Positions 1,821-48,677 of a stretch of 53,795 nucleotides of DNA are shown one piece after another. The translations under genes and the position numbers were made by a program. The DNA is from a virus. The stretch is taken from the UHGV virus genome UHGV-0191815. One strand, given 5' to 3'. A model generated the notes under the pieces. That model was not told the origin of the DNA. It saw only the letters and a program-made list of their open reading frames with translations, and did no database searches. Every line of letters begins with the position of its first letter. Within the stretch, counting starts at the first letter, position 1.

Positions 1821-4604
1821 ATGATTTACACAACTGGAACAATTGCCATTAATGGCAACACTGTTAATGGCGCGGGGACAAACTTCTCCGAGCCGCTTTC
1901 TCTCATTCGTGTGGGCTGCACGCTTATTGCTATCAGCAACCCTATCCAGATCTTTACAGTTACAGAAATCAAGAGCAGCACAGAACTGTCAGTAACGCCA
2001 GCGGCTAACCCTGCAATTGCTGCCGGAACAAAATTTAGCATTCTGCTTTCCGACTCGATCTCAGTTGATGGGCTTGCTCAGGACGTAGCTGAAACGCTGC
2101 GTTACTACCAGGGCAAGGAATCAGAGATCGCAACGGCGGTCGAGTGGTGGAATGAGTTCGGCGGTGATGGTCAGATGGAGCAACTTCTTGCCGACATTCG
2201 CACAGAAACGGCGCAATCAACCGCCAACGCTCAAAAAACAGAATCAGACAAAAACGCAGCGGCATCATCAAAAACAGCAGCAGCAAACTCAGCAACCGCA
2301 GCAAAAGCGTCACAGGATGCAGCAAAAGCCAGTGAAACAGCATCCAGCAACAGCAAAAAAGCGGCGGCTACCAGTGAAACCAATGCGGCAAAATCAGCAG
2401 CCGATGCGCTTAACTATCGCAACCAGGCACAGGCCATCACCGGATCTAACATCGGTCTTTCCTCAAATCCTCGAGACTGCCCGGATATTTCAGGAAACCC
2501 ATCAGGTTATCTTGGCTTTCTGCGCATCATGGAAGGGGCTACCGGGTGGCCTTCTATTGCTTCAGGTGAGCGCTATTTGTCTGGCTTTATTTGCCCGACT
2601 TTAGGCAGTGTCCCGGCATTTTCTGGTCTTTTTATAGGGCATATTACCGGCAGTGCTTACACTTATAAGTGGAGCGAATCAACAGGACCGCAATGGGCTA
2701 GACACGCAAGAAAAGATGAATTAGATGAGAATAGCTCACCACAGTTCAGATCTGTAAGTTTAAAAAGAGTTAGTGACTCGACTACCGGATGGGTTGCAGG
2801 AGGTCTTTTATCTAGCGTTTTGGTTGGTACATCAGGATCAGAACGTGTTTACGGTGGACTATACCCTGAGACAAACCTTTCTTTGCCTGACCAATTAACA
2901 CTACATTTGAGATCTGGCGGCGTGAACAGATACGCAAGCCTTAACGTAAACGGTGAATTTATAGCTGACTCTTTCAAACCTAAAAACGCTGAACAGACAA
3001 GGAGAAACATCAACATCCCAACCATAGGCGGTGGCGAGATAATAACAATCGAAGCACCGGAAGGCGTTGAGGATGGGAAGTATTACCCTATAATTATAAA
3101 CGCCAGTTATTACAGCGCGTACATAACTGGCTATCAGATCGATATTGTTACAGCGTCTGGCGCAGGTAATTACCCAATGAACTGTAACACCTTTTCGGGG
3201 TATGTAAGGACTGGTGGGTGGAGCGACAGAAAAGACGGCGGTTATGGTTACTATAATCGTTATAGTGATAAAGAAATCGCTTTACAATCTATCTGCAGTT
3301 CCAGCAAAGACAAAGATAATTTGCTCTTTGTTTTTGTTGAAGCAAGGGCATTTCCTGTTAAAATGCGCTTGCCTGTAGGCGTAACAGCAGAAGCACCAGC
3401 GGCCCAGGTTGTGTATGATAGTGGTAAAGATACAGAAACGATAATCCCGTGGGGTGTATCAGATCCGCTTAGTTCATATAAAAACCTGCAGGTTATGTTT
3501 GACTTCAGGATGGGTCGGTGCGGCTTTTATTCTGCAACGACTGAAGGACTTTATTATATTTGTAGCGGTGGCAGGGTCGGCCTGTTTAACGGAATTACCG
3601 TTGGCGAAGAAATATCTATGACGATGCCAAAGCTAACTATAAATGGCATGATAGGATCATCTAATGGTTACGTTGCACAAACTGACGCTGATTGGAATGG
3701 TCAGCAGTCAGATGGCATAAGCAAGTTTAAACCTATTGCTGGCAATGTTAACACGCCTGAAAACAGCCTAACTTATGGTGGTTTTCATGTTGGATTTAGC
3801 AATAGCCACGCAACTCAATTCGCCGGGCGCAATTCAAAATTCTACGCAAGAAGTTTTGAGGCCGGAGTAGATAAAGGTTGGCGTAGGCTTGCGACGCTTA
3901 ACGATAATCTTGTGCAAAGGTGGACGGGATACCAGGAATTTAAATCAACTGATTTTTATTCCGATACATTCTCAAGAAAACTATCTTTTAAAGTAACAAC
4001 GTCGACAGTAAGAAACGGAGCATTCGAGCTTTGGGGTGATCCAAACAGACCTACCGTTCTTGAGTATAAAATAAGAAATCCAGAGACAGATACAGCACTA
4101 AAATATGCGTTTTACGCGCAACAGAATACTGATGATTCAATAGTATTCAACGTTAACGGCGCTGTGACATGTGTTACAGTGACCCAATCATCAGATCGCG
4201 ATCTGAAGGACAACATTCAGGTTATAGGTGACGCTACCGAAGCAATCCGTAAAATGAACGGGTACACCTACACGCTCAAGGAAAACGGCCTGCCTTACGC
4301 TGGTGTTATCGCTCAGGAGGTCATGGAAGCGCTGCCGGAAGCTGTTGGATCGTTTACTCATTACGGTGAAGCGTTACAAGGCCCAACAGTTGACGGCAAC
4401 GAGCTACGCGAAGAAACTCGTTACCTAAATGTTGATTATGCAGCGGTTACTGGTTTACTTGTCCAGGTGGCACGCGAAACAGATAACCGCGTCACAGAAC
4501 TGGAAGAAGAAAACGCCAGCCTGCGAGCCAACATTGCCGCAATGGATGAGCGCATCGCAAAACTTGAAGCGCTTGTCAGTAAGTTGACCGGAAGCGAAAA
4601 ATAA
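1821..4604 (+). CDS. Side tail fibre protein with C-terminal intramolecular chaperone (peptidase S74-like) domain
   Basis: 927 aa; N-terminus has Ala/Ser/Thr-rich fibre repeats (KAAATSETNAAKS); C-terminus has SDRDLKDNI...YTYTLKE...GVIAQEV...coiled coil, typical of self-cleaving fibre chaperone domains; RBS ggag upstream. Confidence 0.75.
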   Translation: MIYTTGTIAINGNTVNGAGTNFSEPLSLIRVGCTLIAISNPIQIFTVTEIKSSTELSVTPAANPAIAAGTKFSILLSDSISVDGLAQDVAETLRYYQGKESEIATAVEWWNEFGGDGQMEQLLADIRTETAQSTANAQKTESDKNAAASSKTAAANSATAAKASQDAAKASETASSNSKKAAATSETNAAKSAADALNYRNQAQAITGSNIGLSSNPRDCPDISGNPSGYLGFLRIMEGATGWPSIASGERYLSGFICPTLGSVPAFSGLFIGHITGSAYTYKWSESTGPQWARHARKDELDENSSPQFRSVSLKRVSDSTTGWVAGGLLSSVLVGTSGSERVYGGLYPETNLSLPDQLTLHLRSGGVNRYASLNVNGEFIADSFKPKNAEQTRRNINIPTIGGGEIITIEAPEGVEDGKYYPIIINASYYSAYITGYQIDIVTASGAGNYPMNCNTFSGYVRTGGWSDRKDGGYGYYNRYSDKEIALQSICSSSKDKDNLLFVFVEARAFPVKMRLPVGVTAEAPAAQVVYDSGKDTETIIPWGVSDPLSSYKNLQVMFDFRMGRCGFYSATTEGLYYICSGGRVGLFNGITVGEEISMTMPKLTINGMIGSSNGYVAQTDADWNGQQSDGISKFKPIAGNVNTPENSLTYGGFHVGFSNSHATQFAGRNSKFYARSFEAGVDKGWRRLATLNDNLVQRWTGYQEFKSTDFYSDTFSRKLSFKVTTSTVRNGAFELWGDPNRPTVLEYKIRNPETDTALKYAFYAQQNTDDSIVFNVNGAVTCVTVTQSSDRDLKDNIQVIGDATEAIRKMNGYTYTLKENGLPYAGVIAQEVMEALPEAVGSFTHYGEALQGPTVDGNELREETRYLNVDYAAVTGLLVQVARETDNRVTELEEENASLRANIAAMDERIAKLEALVSKLTGSEK

Positions 4605-13603: not shown

Positions 13604-13909
13604 TGTGTTTTCTCCTATGGTTAAAATGAACGCGCTGGCGGGCATCCCATTATCATTAGATAGCAGTGATTGACCGCTGAACAGATCCCGCCGTTGCGTG
13701 ATATTTGTTTTTCGCATTGCAGCGACACCTGGTTTTTAAAGAGCTTTCAAGGTATGTGCCATTTGTGCTTTCCATTATCTTTTTTCTTGCATCCTTGCAA
13801 CTATGGCCTTACCTTGTCAGCAAGTTTACAGAATGTTGTTAATAGATCAAGGATTGAAAAATACATTTTGTGACTTGCATCAAAAATTTTTAGGTTATAG
13901 GGTAGCGAT
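13604..13909. promoter_or_regulatory. Divergent immunity-region control region (candidate operators and promoters for the repressor gene and the minus-strand early operon)
   Basis: About 300 bp non-coding between divergent HTH genes; contains atacattttgtgact (13861-13875), the palindromes ttgca-tcct-tgcaa and cttg-tcag-caag, and the nut-like element. Confidence 0.5.
13713..13750 (-). promoter_or_regulatory. nut-like element on the minus-strand transcript (boxA-like GCTCTTTAAAAA + hairpin CGCTGCAATGCG)
   Basis: Reverse complement reads agCTCTTTAAAAAccaggtgtCGCTGCAATGCG; near-identical to the plus-strand element at 22441-22474. Confidence 0.45.
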
Positions 13910-14587: not shown

Positions 14588-14679
14588 GCCATAAAAACGC
14601 CAAAACGTAAACAGAAAACCGTGTTTATTGTTTAAATATCAATGGCTTATAAATTTTATAAAAAAGTATACAAAATGTG

Positions 14680-14708
14680 TTGACTGGTGTTTTTACGTGG
14701 CGTATATT
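14680..14708 (+). promoter_or_regulatory. Sigma70-type promoter for the plus-strand early operon (PL-like), with an operator-like sequence abutting the -35
   Basis: -35 TTGACT (14680-14685), 17-bp spacer, -10 TATATT (14703-14708); gTATACAAAATGTG lies at 14666-14679. Confidence 0.6.
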
Positions 14709-14962
14709 GCGAATCAAAGGAAGGATGCAGGTAACAAAATCAACTTCCTGGCACTTTAAAAATCAGGCTTAACACCTTGTCAACCGTGGAGTAACTCCCC
14801 GATGGGGGACCGAAAGCGGCACTGATAACAAGGCGCATGGGGTGTTTAAAGCGTTACATCCCCCACGAAACCGCACGCAAGGCGACGAGTCAGCTTGCTT
14901 GGAGTGAGCAGGGTCACACCGGAAACGGCGATGATTGCGGGATTAGTTGAAAGATGTTAAGC

Positions 14963-15000
14963 CATTCTTTAACAATCTGGTCAGCCGCTGGAAGTGCGGC
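14963..15000 (+). promoter_or_regulatory. nut-like site: boxA-like (cattCTTTAACAAt) followed by hairpin GCCGC-tggaagt-GCGGC
   Basis: Lies in the roughly 340-nt leader between the promoter and the first early gene; boxA resembles the rrn/lambda boxA consensus. Confidence 0.45.
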
Positions 15001-15056
15001 AATTAACGAAGATGATTTTTTATTAAGTATCATCAAGGATATAAGGAGATCAGATC

Positions 15057-18137: not shown

Positions 18138-18758
18138 ATGAAAGACATCAAAACAGCTTATTCACTCGGCAGCGATGGCATGTTAATCACTCGTTACACT
18201 GAAGACGCAAGTTATCATGAAGTTGAAACGAAGGATTATCACGAAGTGATTAAAGATATGGAATCTGGCGCGTATGACGCAGATTTGAACCTGGCGTTGC
18301 AGGTTGCTGATATTGTTATGGATGCGTCGATGCGCGATTATGTGTCTTTAGACGCTGAAGAAAAAACTGCTATAGCTCGTTATGTCTTCTGCCTCACTTT
18401 CGTGAAACGCATGGAAGAGGAATATGGTCGCGTGCCAGTGCCGGAAGATCTTGATCCTCTGGCGTTCGGTAGTGCTGTTATCTTCCCGTTAGATGAAAAC
18501 CGCATGGTTAGCGCTGCACTGTATTCTGTGCGCGGTGTGATGAAGAAAATATTTGAGGCCAAAGCGCTACAGAAGTGCATTGATGAAGGGCACAACGAAG
18601 AAGACGTAAGAGCAATCATGCCGATGTTTTATGGCGAAATGGTTGATATTAACATGCGTGCGAATGATTTAGGCGTGCAGGCGGTAATAAGCGTGCTTAA
18701 TGAAGCGCGTAAAATGGCACAGCCAATGCCTGAACCTGAAAAGCGCGTACTCCATTAA
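18138..18758 (+). CDS. Hypothetical protein (206 aa)
   Basis: Long ORF with RBS; no recognisable motif. Confidence 0.55.
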   Translation: MKDIKTAYSLGSDGMLITRYTEDASYHEVETKDYHEVIKDMESGAYDADLNLALQVADIVMDASMRDYVSLDAEEKTAIARYVFCLTFVKRMEEEYGRVPVPEDLDPLAFGSAVIFPLDENRMVSAALYSVRGVMKKIFEAKALQKCIDEGHNEEDVRAIMPMFYGEMVDINMRANDLGVQAVISVLNEARKMAQPMPEPEKRVLH

Positions 18759-18857
18759 TATTGTGATTGCGATTACATAACTATACGTTTTGTGTTGTGA
18801 TCGCAAATCCGTTTTGTAAACTGAAATCGAAAGGTTTACAGCACGGAGGGAAACAAG

Positions 18858-21075: not shown

Positions 21076-21559
21076 CAGGTTATTGGCCTGCGTTTATGTC
21101 GCCGTTTTCGTGATCATCAACCTCATTGTTAACCATTGCGGCCCGTGTGTAATTCCGATCACTACGGTAGCCGCAGTGTGTGTAAATATGATGATCCGCG
21201 ACTTTTTGTTATATGACGGCGGTATTAAGTGGTCGGCTACAACATGCGCAGCCGCTGGCGCAATCACGGTAATGATAAATTACGATGCGGGAATGGTGGC
21301 AATTGCGTCATTTGTCGCGGTTGTTTCCGGTGCGCTTATTTCTGGCTGTGTTTACCGTGTTTTGCCTGGTGATTTCGATTCTAAGCGCTGGCCTGCAAAT
21401 ATAGCTTCAGCCATCGGGGATGCGCTGATTTTTCCCACGCTGTCGTTCATGGCGTTTATGCCGGAAATATCAGCCATGCAATTCATCTCAAAAATGGCAG
21501 CGGTGACAGTGATCACTATCATCATGCGCCGCTATTTCACGTTTGAGGGAAGAAAATGA
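21056..21559 (+). CDS. Integral membrane protein (about 4 TM segments)
   Basis: MKKVTIDRLLACVYVAVFVIINLIV...; multiple hydrophobic helices; RBS aagagg. Confidence 0.5.
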   Translation: MKKVTIDRLLACVYVAVFVIINLIVNHCGPCVIPITTVAAVCVNMMIRDFLLYDGGIKWSATTCAAAGAITVMINYDAGMVAIASFVAVVSGALISGCVYRVLPGDFDSKRWPANIASAIGDALIFPTLSFMAFMPEISAMQFISKMAAVTVITIIMRRYFTFEGRK

Positions 21560-22344
21560 GAAAGGCTAAACACTGGTTAAATAATTGGCTAAGAAACTGG
21601 GTTGTGTGGTCGCTGTACGACGGCAGCGGGTACGCCGTTAAAGACTGGGCGGAAGCGGGATATAAGTGCTATTGCTTCAACTATGACGGCGCAAATCACG
21701 GCGATTATGAAGGCGTTAAAATCATTCACCCGAATATTGAATACGTTAACGTATGGATTGATAGTCACTTCCTGGTGATGTTCTCGCCTGAATTGTCTGT
21801 TTATCCAGAGCCTGATATTATCCTGGGCTTCCCGCCGTGCGACGATCTCGCCGTGTCTGGCGCTCGCTGGTTCGCTGATAAACGGAAAAAAGATCCTGAC
21901 TTCCAGGTGAAGGCGGCTAATAGCGCAAAACTGGTAGAAAAGCTGGCGAATATGCACAACGTGCCGTGGATGGTGGAAAATCCGGTGGGAGCACTGTCAA
22001 CGCTATGGCGTAAACCGGATTTTATCTTCAATCCTTGCGCTTACGGTGGCTACCTTCCGGAAGATGACAAACATCCTGCCTTCCCTGAATACATAGCCGC
22101 CCGCGACGCATACACGAAGAAAACTTGTATTTGGTGCGGCAACGGATTTAAACAGCCGCTGTTTCGGCCTGTACCAATGCCGGACGAATTGGAAGACAGT
22201 AAACAGCACGCTAAGTTAGGAGGAAAGTCAAAGCGCACTAAGATGATCCGCTCACTAACGCCGCGAGGCTTTGCCCGTGCTGTATTCCTGGCTAACGACA
22301 GGGCCATCAATCGTAATACGCTCAACAGCGTTTTACCGGACTGA
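21556..22344 (+). CDS. Putative DNA (cytosine-5) methyltransferase
   Basis: Motif I-like LYDGSGY, motif IV-like GFPPCDDLAVSG, motif VI-like ENPVGAL. Confidence 0.55.
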   Translation: MRKAKHWLNNWLRNWVVWSLYDGSGYAVKDWAEAGYKCYCFNYDGANHGDYEGVKIIHPNIEYVNVWIDSHFLVMFSPELSVYPEPDIILGFPPCDDLAVSGARWFADKRKKDPDFQVKAANSAKLVEKLANMHNVPWMVENPVGALSTLWRKPDFIFNPCAYGGYLPEDDKHPAFPEYIAARDAYTKKTCIWCGNGFKQPLFRPVPMPDELEDSKQHAKLGGKSKRTKMIRSLTPRGFARAVFLANDRAINRNTLNSVLPD

Positions 22345-22366
22345 AATTTACAAAATGGCGTCATTG

Positions 22367-22382
22367 TGTGATTTGTGTCACA
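22367..22382. promoter_or_regulatory. Perfect palindrome TGTGA-tttgtg-TCACA (CRP-consensus-like, or a phage operator)
   Basis: Read directly; lies just upstream of a candidate promoter. Confidence 0.4.
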
Positions 22383-22398
22383 TAATGGCGCTTTTCTT

Positions 22399-22427
22399 CT
22401 TGTTTACGTGTATCCATTTTGTATACT
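22399..22427 (+). promoter_or_regulatory. Candidate internal promoter (-35 cttgtt, -10 TATACT)
   Basis: -10 TATACT at 22422-22427 with a 17-bp spacer; overlaps ccattttgtatac, a copy of the recurring motif. Confidence 0.35.
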
Positions 22428-22440
22428 GCAAACAAAATAA

Positions 22441-22474
22441 ACGCTCTTTAAAAATCCGGTGGCGCTGCAATGCG
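22441..22474 (+). promoter_or_regulatory. nut-like element: boxA CGCTCTTTAAAAA + hairpin CGCTGCAATGCG
   Basis: boxA matches lambda nut boxA (CGCTCTTA) closely; the whole element is near-identical to the minus-strand copy at 13713-13750. Confidence 0.45.
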
Positions 22475-22502
22475 TAAAAGTCACATGAAAGGAGTGTGAG
22501 CT

Positions 22503-22679
22503 ATGTCTTTCGATTATTACCAATGGCATGACGACTATGAACGAGAAAGCGTCATGCGTGCGATGTGCAACATGTGCGATACGAAGAAAGGAGAATGTAA
22601 CGAGTGCAACGAGTGTTTAGATCATTGGCTAAAGGCCGGACGCGACGAAAGGCGGAGCGAAACAGAAAATCAAAAATAA
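22503..22679 (+). CDS. Small Cys-rich protein (58 aa), possible zinc ribbon
   Basis: MSFDYYQWHDDYERESVMRAMCNMCDTKKGECNECNECLDHWLKAGRDERRSETENQK; under 60 aa so absent from the ORF track. Confidence 0.4.
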   Translation: MSFDYYQWHDDYERESVMRAMCNMCDTKKGECNECNECLDHWLKAGRDERRSETENQK

Positions 22680-32754: not shown

Positions 32755-33240
32755 ATGACCCGCACGAAAAAGGCAAAGGCTGACGATAAAAAACCAGCCG
32801 CCAAAAAGACGGGCCGTCCACATGGCTATACAGAAGAAAAGGCATTGGAGATCTGCGAGCTTGTGTCGGACGGCGAAAGCATTAACAAGATTTCGAAGAT
32901 GCCTGGTATGCCTGCGCGTTCAACAATCCTTAAATGGTTCCGTGATGTGCCAGAGTTTTCGGACATGTACATACGCGCGAAGGAGATCGGATTCGAGGTG
33001 TTAGCTGATGAGATCATCGATCTTGCTGACGCGCCAGAGAACATCAAAAAGGAAGAATTGAACAGACACCATTTGATGATTGAGACTCGTAAATGGCTAT
33101 TAGCAAAACTGCAACCGCGTAAGTATGGCGAACGCGTTACGCAGGAGATCGTAGGCAACAGGGAAGAAGCACCCGTCCAAGTAGAAGTCACGAAAGAAGA
33201 GATCGCCCGCATTGTCCAGGAAGTAGAAGACGAGGTGTGA
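32755..33240 (+). CDS. Terminase small subunit
   Basis: Basic N-terminus, HTH-like segment (INKISKMPGMPARSTILKWF), position directly upstream of the large subunit; RBS aagagg. Confidence 0.65.
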   Translation: MTRTKKAKADDKKPAAKKTGRPHGYTEEKALEICELVSDGESINKISKMPGMPARSTILKWFRDVPEFSDMYIRAKEIGFEVLADEIIDLADAPENIKKEELNRHHLMIETRKWLLAKLQPRKYGERVTQEIVGNREEAPVQVEVTKEEIARIVQEVEDEV

Positions 33241-46826: not shown

Positions 46827-46884
46827 CTGTATACAATATGTAATTGCCGAAGTGAAGCCATTTTGAAAACTAGCTATAATCATT
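46827..46884. promoter_or_regulatory. Palindromic motif ctgTATACAATATGTAa plus candidate plus-strand promoter for the tail tip operon (-35 GTGAAG, -10 TATAAT)
   Basis: -10 TATAAT at 46875-46880 with a 17-bp spacer; motif 46830-46842; gaagtgaag box shared with the site at 43591-43600. Confidence 0.45.
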
Positions 46885-47772: not shown

Positions 47773-48021
47773 CTATAAGTTATCGCGCAGATAATTAACT
47801 CCTTTATCGGTGACGAACGAATGATTGACCTGGTTTTCGTCCGTCATGATGATGAATAGCTTTTCCTGCAGGTATTTCGCTTTTGGGTACAGCGTTAAAC
47901 AGACCTGGTACAGTATCCCGCGCTCAATCAGCAAATCAATAAATTCGTGCTCATGATAACCGATTAGGCGGGCGGCCTGTTTCAACGTGTACACATAATC
48001 GCCGTGATTGCGCCGCCCCAT
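47773..48021 (-). CDS. 82-aa protein with possible HTH (cassette 3)
   Basis: MGRRNHGDYVYTLKQAARLIGYHEHEFIDLLIERGILYQV... Confidence 0.5.
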   Translation of the reverse strand: MGRRNHGDYVYTLKQAARLIGYHEHEFIDLLIERGILYQVCLTLYPKAKYLQEKLFIIMTDENQVNHSFVTDKGVNYLRDNL

Positions 48022-48030
48022 GTTGCCGCC

Positions 48031-48381
48031 TTATTTATCGAATGCGCCCAGGTTATCAATGCAGAAGTCTTTCGCCGCTTTTTCGTATTCGCGTTTTGCC
48101 TCAGGATCGTCAGCCGGGAAGCCTTTTGCGTGGATTTCACCAGGGCAAGATTGATCCATAGAGTCTGCAAATTCAACATTGACATTGAAGTTAATATCTT
48201 TCGGGTTCATCTCTTCCACCTTATCCGGCACCTGGACCGGAGTAATATCAAAATCACGAGCGTTAGACCAACAGAGAAGCAATTCTCGACCTTCATCACG
48301 CGCTGCGGCATATGTATCAAACAGGCCCATGCGCTCCCATTCACATTTATCAGTCCACACGTCTAACCTGTATTTTTGCAT
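48031..48381 (-). CDS. 116-aa acidic hypothetical protein (cassette 3)
   Basis: MQKYRLDVWTDKCEWERMGLFDTYAAARDEGRELLLCWSNARDFDITPVQVPDKVEEMNPKD...; the overlapping plus-strand ORFs are Ser-rich and look like antisense artefacts. Confidence 0.55.
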   Translation of the reverse strand: MQKYRLDVWTDKCEWERMGLFDTYAAARDEGRELLLCWSNARDFDITPVQVPDKVEEMNPKDINFNVNVEFADSMDQSCPGEIHAKGFPADDPEAKREYEKAAKDFCIDNLGAFDK

Positions 48382-48388
48382 TTCGTTA

Positions 48389-48565
48389 ACCTCTCATTTG
48401 ACAGGTTCGATCTCGTACCCCAAAACGCGTTCGTCTTCAGCAAGTAAAAGTGCGTCAACCAGTGCCTCTCCTTCATCTTTATACATGGCAACAAGCATTT
48501 CCCTGCCATCCGCTAGGAACACCGTCAACCTCCACACCTTATCGTCCACATCACACCTCCGCGCC
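48389..48565 (-). CDS. 58-aa hypothetical protein (first gene of cassette 3)
   Basis: MARRCDVDDKVWRLTVFLADGREMLVAMYKDEGEALVDALLLAEDERVLGYEIEPVK; RBS gcaggg. Confidence 0.4.
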
Positions 48566-48592
48566 ATTTTGTTAACCCTGCTTCATTTTGAG

Positions 48593-48610
48593 TACAATAT
48601 ACATATTGTA
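48593..48610. promoter_or_regulatory. Perfect 8-bp inverted repeat TACAATAT-ac-ATATTGTA upstream of cassette 3 and of gene L
   Basis: Read directly; a candidate -35 TTGATC for the minus-strand cassette lies nearby. Confidence 0.5.
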
Positions 48611-48677
48611 AAAAACGCGATCAACCGTTCTGGTATGGTTTAGTGTGATGGCGATCACAAAATGACAAGGTGATAAA

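Follow-up and report, generated by a model that had tools for sequence, protein, structure and literature searches.

A terminator-type hairpin with a CRP-type palindrome at its apex may act both as RNA terminator and as activator site upstream of nutR2 in a phage of the mEp021 group

Results

A palindrome and a hairpin share one element between the methyltransferase gene and nutR2

The palindrome R2 in the phage genome UHGV-0191815 (53,795 nucleotides, all of which were analysed and are referred to as the window) is real and very unlikely to be a product of chance: it is the apex of a terminator-type hairpin and also a member of a family of CRP-type sites. We propose, at a probability of about 45%, that the R2 element is bifunctional, serving in RNA as a terminator and in DNA as a class-I-type activator site, probably for CRP, of a conserved weak promoter. 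The case for the terminator comes from how far the stem extends, from its asymmetry between the strands and from where it lies; that for the class-I activator site and a real internal promoter comes from the family of motifs, from a geometry like that of lac and from the pattern of conservation.

The window is from a phage of the mEp021 (mEpimmI) group. Seven coliphages of this group match the region at 80–87% identity in BLAST, and a 'distant' BLAST search against phages returned the same seven records and no further relatives. Of 5426 complete E. coli genomes, 35 carry prophages that match the region, also within this range of identity, and genome contigs scanned with an 18-mer anchor gave chance matches only, in unrelated taxa. 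The N-like protein of these phages, Gp17, is reportedly the topic of a study on mEp021-group phages by Valencia-Toxqui et al. in 2023 (Arch Virol 168:92). Besides this protein, the mEpimmI phages have three nut sites, of which nutR2 sits downstream of the methyltransferase gene; among the terminators of the group, t1, t2 and t5 have been demonstrated, and t3 and t4 have been predicted (PMC11893012). In the window, the methyltransferase-like ORF encodes 262 amino acids and is named DNA cytosine methyltransferase in RefSeq/GenBank, and a Pfam-A search of it gave no match at E <= 0.01. No Rfam match at gathering thresholds was found in the entire window. Downstream of the hairpin follow a small ninF-like gene (ATG at 22503) and the genes of NinG, RusA and the Q antiterminator. 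The features of the locus are as follows.

21556-22344, plus strand: methyltransferase-like ORF, stop codon at 22342-22344
22357-22392, plus strand: 16-pair RNA hairpin GGCGUCAUUGUGUGAU-UUGU-GUCACAUAAUGGCGCU, from the terminator scan and RNA folding; homologue of mEp021 TERM_4, the predicted t4
22367-22382 (centre 22374.5): CRP-type core R2, TGTGAtttgtgTCACA, that is TGTGATTTGTGTCACA, a perfect TGTGA-N6-TCACA
22392-22406, plus strand: T/U-rich tail TTTTCTTCTTGTTTA after the stem, sharing bases with the stretch that separates the CRP-type site from the -35
22400-22405, plus strand: -35-like TTGTTT, 17 bp after the CRP-type core
22413-22427, plus strand: conserved block TCCATTTTGTATACT, holding the -10-like TATACT (22422-22427), 16 bp after the -35
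22434, plus strand: predicted transcription start, an A after C, 7 nt after the -10, placed from the sequence
22442-22475, plus strand: nutR2, with boxA CGCTCTTTAAAAA (22442-22454) and a boxB hairpin CGC-UGCAAU-GCG within 22462-22475

The hairpin has the properties of an RNA stem on the rightward transcript

R2 forms the inner part of an imperfect inverted repeat (22357-22392), which in DNA reads GGCGTCATTGTGTGAT-TTGT-GTCACATAATGGCGCT and is followed by TTTTCTTCTTGTTT. The hairpin begins 13 nt past the stop codon of the methyltransferase-like ORF and was flagged by the terminator scan. It contains 16 pairs with a G+C-rich base (GGCG/CGCU(C)) and reaches -23.4 kcal/mol on its own. A 71-nt RNA covering 22340-22410 folds at -24.5 kcal/mol (z = -5.6) when transcribed from the plus strand, compared with -13.8 kcal/mol from the minus strand. 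All four non-Watson-Crick appositions of the stem are G.U pairs, and this holds on the plus strand only; by our own estimate, the chance that all four mismatches would be G.U on that strand is about (1/6)^4. The imperfections therefore fit an RNA stem on the rightward transcript, a property that a protein-binding site does not predict. The asymmetry is also seen in the mean hairpin energy over 36 variants of the locus, which is -20.3 kcal/mol for the plus strand and -12.6 kcal/mol for the minus strand. Across these variants the stem is paired in 95% of cells, a stable hairpin is found in 35 of 36, and a score of the d'Aubenton-Carafa type is positive in 33 of 36. Directly 3′ of the stem the window has the U-tract UUUUCUUCUUGUUU. 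This tract differs among relatives, and is poor in mEp021 (TATTCACC) and in one other relative (L038).

Beyond the 16-bp core the stem continues into an outer part, GGCGUCAUU/AAUGGCGCU, which CRP does not require, which nearly all relatives keep, and which within the CRP-type site family occurs only at the R2 copy. The mEp021 record (MH706966) carries the annotation 'terminator TERM_4; score=79' on exactly the homologous bases. In the records of five other mEp genomes, the R2 hairpin is missing from the deposited ARNold terminators. A covariation test of the stem on the 36 variants found 0 compensatory double changes, with one-sided changes that keep pairing in five pairs and break it in five. 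The stem is simply conserved, and this result is uninformative, being neutral rather than contrary to a terminator. The CGTGA state is found in 25 of 36 relatives, where it places a C x A mismatch in the stem; it is tolerated by the CRP-type site and is present also at two other members of the family (R1 and S7, below).

These observations bear on a reading in which R2 is an activator site with its promoter and the hairpin is without terminator activity, being at most a stabiliser of the mRNA 3′ end, or incidental. Such a reading would accommodate the variable U-tract, the lack of covariation, the lack of an ARNold call in five relatives, and the family-level evidence of enrichment and geometry described below. 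It would leave unexplained why the outer stem is conserved though it lies beyond the core, and why the mismatches are G.U on the transcribed strand only, and we consider it quite unlikely. Just to the left of the hairpin, the minus strand at 22345-22360 carries CGCCATTTTGTAAATT, a copy with one mismatch of a promoter 13-mer (below); this copy heads into the methyltransferase gene from its 3′ end and may be an antisense promoter, or a coincidence.

A weak candidate promoter lies between the CRP-type site and nutR2

R2 agrees with the core of a CRP site at 10 of 10 symmetric positions and has T at position 9 (TGTGAT). The sequence-only reading had described a perfect TGTGA-N6-TCACA palindrome and a candidate -10 TATACT ahead of a nut-like element, and both sequences are present: the former is TGTGATTTGTGTCACA at 22367-22382, and TATACT at 22422-22427 is followed by boxA and boxB at 22442-22475. 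It had further put the centre of the palindrome 35-40 bp from this -10, a distance about 10 bp short of the 47.5 bp that we measured to the first base of TATACT. The centre lies 25.5 bp upstream of the -35-like TTGTTT (22400-22405), and is at -59.5 when counted from the predicted start at 22434. The pair TTGTTT-16-TATACT matches 8 of 12 consensus positions and was unflagged by a promoter consensus scan; it is a candidate for a conserved weak sigma-70 promoter. The suggestion that a CRP-type site serves an internal promoter at this locus stands in part: the site agrees with the consensus, the geometry resembles that of class I, and a conserved promoter-like element precedes nutR2-ninG-rusA-Q, but the terminator-type hairpin had been overlooked.

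The nut-like element is the published nutR2, because nutR2 has been placed downstream of the methyltransferase gene (PMC11893012). At this position boxA precedes a boxB hairpin whose loop is A-rich, and this boxB is identical to that of nutL (13713-13724, minus strand), which reads CGCUGCAAUGCG. The G.U closing pair of the nutR2 boxB (GCGC..GCGU) is replaced by C-G (CCGC..GCGG) in three relatives (L010, L039 and L040) and also in L130; this compensatory double change supports the boxB hairpin of nutR2. Farther downstream, the segment TCACA-tgaAAGGAG-TGTGA (22481-22499) can form a 5-bp hairpin that encloses the Shine-Dalgarno of the ninF-like gene (ATG 22503), and this hairpin is absent from relatives, which have AATCACCTGAAAAGGAGAGAGC. 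The block GTATCCATTTTGTATACT was also considered as an IHF site or a palindrome, and by inspection the matches are poor.

The half-sites and the promoter block are conserved among relatives

R2 was compared among about 50 relatives, represented by 36 anchor-derived variants and 22 BLAST-derived sequences. The loci from IMG/VR and metagenomes were gathered with an exact 18-mer anchor, so that conservation of the block among them is an ascertainment artefact; conservation of the promoter block was therefore counted only on the 22 BLAST-derived sequences, which are prophages. All 36 anchor-derived variants and all 22 BLAST-derived sequences keep the GTGA and T(C/T)AC of R2, where L130 shows the single C-to-T change (TTACA). 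At R2 and at S7 the central 4 nt vary strongly, with more than 10 variants. No relative, the 22 BLAST-derived ones included, departs from the TTGT of the -35, and the bases adjacent to it vary. In the 22 BLAST-derived sequences TCC(A/G)TTTTGTATACT is invariant as well, and the bases between the invariant TTGT and TCCRTTTTGTATACT vary; variation in this set falls between the stem and the -35 and within the initial half of the spacer. The interval from the site to the -10 shows a single 1-nt indel among the 36 variants. That R2 would be a chance resemblance, functionless as DNA and RNA, is barely credible: no observation speaks for it, and it is contradicted by the near-invariance across about 50 related sequences amid variable neighbours and by the enrichment and geometry statistics given below.

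We also considered whether the sites could be operators of another dimeric regulator, encoded by the phage or by the host, with GTGAT-N4-ATCAC specificity and perhaps sensitivity to Dam, so that the binder would not be CRP. The sequence-only reading had already offered a phage regulator as an alternative, and the phage encodes HTH proteins. A G precedes ATCACA and creates a GATC, a Dam site, in 28 of 29 R2 variants (22376-22377 in the window) and in all S7 variants, and the other three central bases vary freely despite the conserved GATC; CRP offers no obvious explanation for this. GATC is not under-represented in the window (249 observed vs about 207-255 expected). On the other hand, the motif departs from the CRP consensus at none of the positions that the latter specifies, T9/A14 among them, and the geometry equals that of lac P1 in the 17-bp gap to the -35. 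The outer T/C base of the left half-site is not concerted among the sites of one genome; co-evolution of this base with a phage-encoded binder was looked for among sites within genomes and not seen, which argues against a co-evolving phage-encoded binder. For the immunity repressor in particular, an operator role of R2 is unlikely because the pL and pR regions hold no clusters of the motif, with one degenerate copy near pL and zero at pR. These considerations make a binder other than CRP very doubtful.

CRP-type sites are enriched in the window and four of them precede promoter-like elements

By our own arithmetic about 0.05 perfect cores are expected in 53.8 kb, and two were found (22367 and 48644). 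When at most one mismatch is allowed, TGTGA-N6-TCACA occurs at 11 sites, compared with 1.66 expected from dinucleotide shuffles. The excess is specific for the spacing, as the other spacings from 0 to 20 of the TGTGA palindrome have 0-3 sites each vs 11 at N6. In raw counts of X-N6-rc(X) pentamers, AATCA stood above TGTGA through A+T richness, and an unbiased screen normalised for spacing (1024 pentamers x 21 spacings) was used instead. In this screen (TGTGA, N6) ranks first of the 21,504 spaced palindromes in the window (11 vs 0.9, P = 3.5e-9). The same screen gave 7 vs 1.15 (P = 2e-4) for mEp021, a count that is not independent of that in the window because the sites are homologous; seven window sites are at homologous positions in mEp021, the four of the modules listed below among them. 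Phage lambda, taken as a control, has 2 CRP-type sites.

Four of the 11 sites are followed by TTGnnn 17-19 bp downstream and by a TAnnnT -10 at 16-17 bp spacing. By chance, 0.2% of oriented positions would show this arrangement, so that the binomial P for four of 11 is 9e-8, for gap-window limits that were picked post hoc. The four modules are as follows.

22367 (site TGTGATTTGTGTCACA), plus strand: R2 module, 17-bp gap, TTGTTT-16-TATACT
18762-18822, plus strand: R1 module, site TGTGATTGCGATTACA at 18762-18777, 17-bp gap, TTGTGA (18795-18800), 16-bp spacer, TAAACT (18817-18822)
13823-13884, minus strand: putative pL module, site TGTGACTTGCATCAAA at 13869-13884, 18-bp gap, TTGATC (13850->13845), 16-bp spacer, TAAACT (13828->13823)
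48596-48659, minus strand: S7 module, perfect site TGTGATGGCGATCACA at 48644-48659, 19-bp gap, TTGATC-17-TATATT (48624->48596)

R1 has the same spacing as R2, and mEp021 retains it. The pL site TGTGACTTGCATCAAA is degenerate and is identical in mEp021, and its module lies upstream of nutL (13744->13713). The promoter-like element of S7 points into a leftward operon of three genes (48394-48567, 48031-48381 and 47773-48021, minus strand), the third of which (47773-48021) has an ANT/KilAC antirepressor domain. At S7 the half-sites are conserved and the centre is variable in 12 relatives. None of R1, pL and S7 is in a long hairpin. Because S7 lacks the extended stem and precedes its own promoter, a role in RNA cannot explain its conservation.

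These results speak against the view that the element is a terminator and nothing more, namely the t4 of the methyltransferase gene, with the CRP-type core as a by-product of the stem and the 'promoter' conserved for another reason. The hairpin, its tail and its position after the stop codon would all be expected of such a terminator, the mEp021 annotation and the literature (PMC11893012) describe it as one, and the promoter hexamers are weak. The N6-specific enrichment of the motif, the matching site-promoter spacing at R1, pL and S7, which have no long hairpins, and the C x A stem mismatch in most relatives would remain unexplained, and we judge a terminator alone to be rather unlikely.

We further noticed that R1, R2 and pL have in common the 13-mer CRTTYTGTAWACT around the -10, which could represent a -10 region common to these promoters, or else an operator. 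Counted with up to one mismatch, it occurs five times, at 13823-13835 and 14665-14677 on the minus strand and at 18810-18822, 22415-22427 and 46859-46871 on the plus strand, and copies are present at the corresponding places in mEp021. One opposite-strand copy is directly upstream of the -35 of pR (TTGACT-17-TATATT, 14680-14708). Downstream of pR there are two boxA-like sequences, CTTTAAAAATCAGG and CTTTAACAATCTGG (14754-14767 and 14967-15005), either of which is a candidate for the published nutR1; after CTTTAACAATCTGG comes a hairpin, GCCGC-UGGAAGU-GCGGC, that lies shortly ahead of the gp17-like gene (15057). R1 is located directly after the stop of ORF 18138-18758, and the pL site stands ahead of the repressor gene as well, 26 bp from its start codon (13910). 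In L086, one of the relatives, R1 reads TGTGGT..ATCGCA, where RNA-type pairing is kept via two G.U pairs and the CRP core is weakened.

Six further CRP-type sites of 16 bp with one mismatch are at 4163, 14903, 19658, 33236, 35225 and 49490, exceeding the approximately one expected. Five of them fall within coding sequence, that at 33236 being at the junction of two overlapping ORFs, and the sixth, at 14903, precedes the gp17-like gene in the early region. Those at 14903 and 33236 are conserved in mEp021, and the other four are unmatched there. Site S6 (46884) is doubtful, as its right half is not conserved (TCTCA, TATCA, TCTAA) and it overlaps a predicted start.

Discussion

The features, their conservation, the enrichment of the motif and its geometry are seen in the sequence; from them we infer, as follows, that transcription is terminated, that the promoter is active, and which protein binds with what effect. 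On the rightward early transcript, 22357-22392 would fold, and its G+C-rich base and U-rich tract would constitute the intrinsic terminator t4, which would end transcripts of the methyltransferase gene unless the polymerase has been modified by the N-like Gp17 together with Nus factors. In DNA, the top of the same inverted repeat would serve, 17 bp ahead of the -35, as the consensus target of a dimeric activator, for which host cAMP-CRP is the most probable candidate. The weak sigma-70 promoter would start transcription at 22434, 8 nt before nutR2. Transcripts that begin there would therefore carry their own nut site, and the expression of ninF-ninG-rusA-Q would depend on Gp17 and be tuned by the cAMP state of the cell. 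The two functions need not conflict, since the outer stem leaves the 16-bp core untouched.

If this bifunctional reading is true, one 36-bp inverted repeat would halt unmodified polymerase as RNA and, as DNA, recruit CRP to restart transcription before the third nut site. This could account for the need of the phage group for nutR2, and Q, hence lysis, would come under nutritional control. Judging from the motif and its placement, host cAMP-CRP may well tune the phage through four lac-like sites upstream of weak promoters. A broader proposal, to which we attach only a small probability, is that the mEpimmI phages carry a small cAMP-CRP regulon, with sites in a class-I position at pL, at two early-right internal promoters (one fused to t4 and feeding nutR2-Q) and at the ANT/KilAC antirepressor operon, and that CRP is an input that is missing from the present account of induction or decision. 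Since lysogens of the mEp021 group have been reported not to be UV-inducible and the repressor is without a cleavage site (PMC11893012), signalling of the carbon state via CRP could be this missing input. Together with the sites at pL and the antirepressor operon, R2 would then provide a testable hypothesis for host sensing by prevalent gut prophages that are not UV-inducible. If the bifunctional reading is not true, the element stays an ordinary predicted terminator that has already been annotated. The hairpin and nutR2 were known beforehand as annotated or published predictions, and PMC11893012 has no mention of a family of CRP-type sites or of these internal promoters.

Among known systems, the closest likeness in geometry is with lac P1. 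It is the archetypal class I CRP-dependent promoter in the class I/II scheme of Busby and Ebright, with its site centred at -61.5; the centres of class I sites are near -61.5, or at -71.5, -82.5 or -92.5, ahead of the -35 and on its face of the helix. Read from MG1655, lac P1 has 17 bp between TCACT and TTTACA, as many as separate core and -35 at R2 and R1. R2, a site predicted from its sequence, and lac P1 share the TGTGA-N6-TCAC(A/T) core, this 17-bp gap and weak hexamers, which at R2 are -35-like and -10-like. R2 differs in its spacer of 16 bp rather than 18 bp, which puts its centre at -59.5 as counted from the -10, and in having a perfect core. Unlike lac P1, R2 is embedded in a terminator-type hairpin and its candidate promoter is immediately followed by a nut site.

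In phage lambda, the nin-region terminators tR2-tR4 are overridden by N antitermination ahead of Q. Both phages place terminators, a predicted one in the window, ahead of ninG-rusA-Q and after the early genes, to be overridden by a Nus-dependent N-type system, but lambda is not known to have a third nut site or an internal promoter there, and it shows no enrichment of CRP-type sites (2 sites). The t4/TERM_4 and nutR2 of mEp021 (MH706966) represent the homologous locus, with the same order of methyltransferase, hairpin, nutR2, ninF, ninG, rusA and Q. The mEp021 locus differs from the window in its sequence (about 84% identity), in having CGTGAT-GTGG-ATCACA with a C x A mismatch, and in its poorer U-tract; neither CRP nor an internal promoter at t4 is mentioned in PMC11893012, where 'CRP' occurs 0 times. 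A direct action of cAMP-CRP on a phage has been described for T1, where it acts on the promoters pir, dam and recE and ties the lysis-lysogeny decision to the metabolic state (PMC6737242). T1 is unrelated, no overlap with a terminator is reported for it, and CRP represses there (PMC6737242), whereas the geometry of the sites in the mEp021 group suggests activation.
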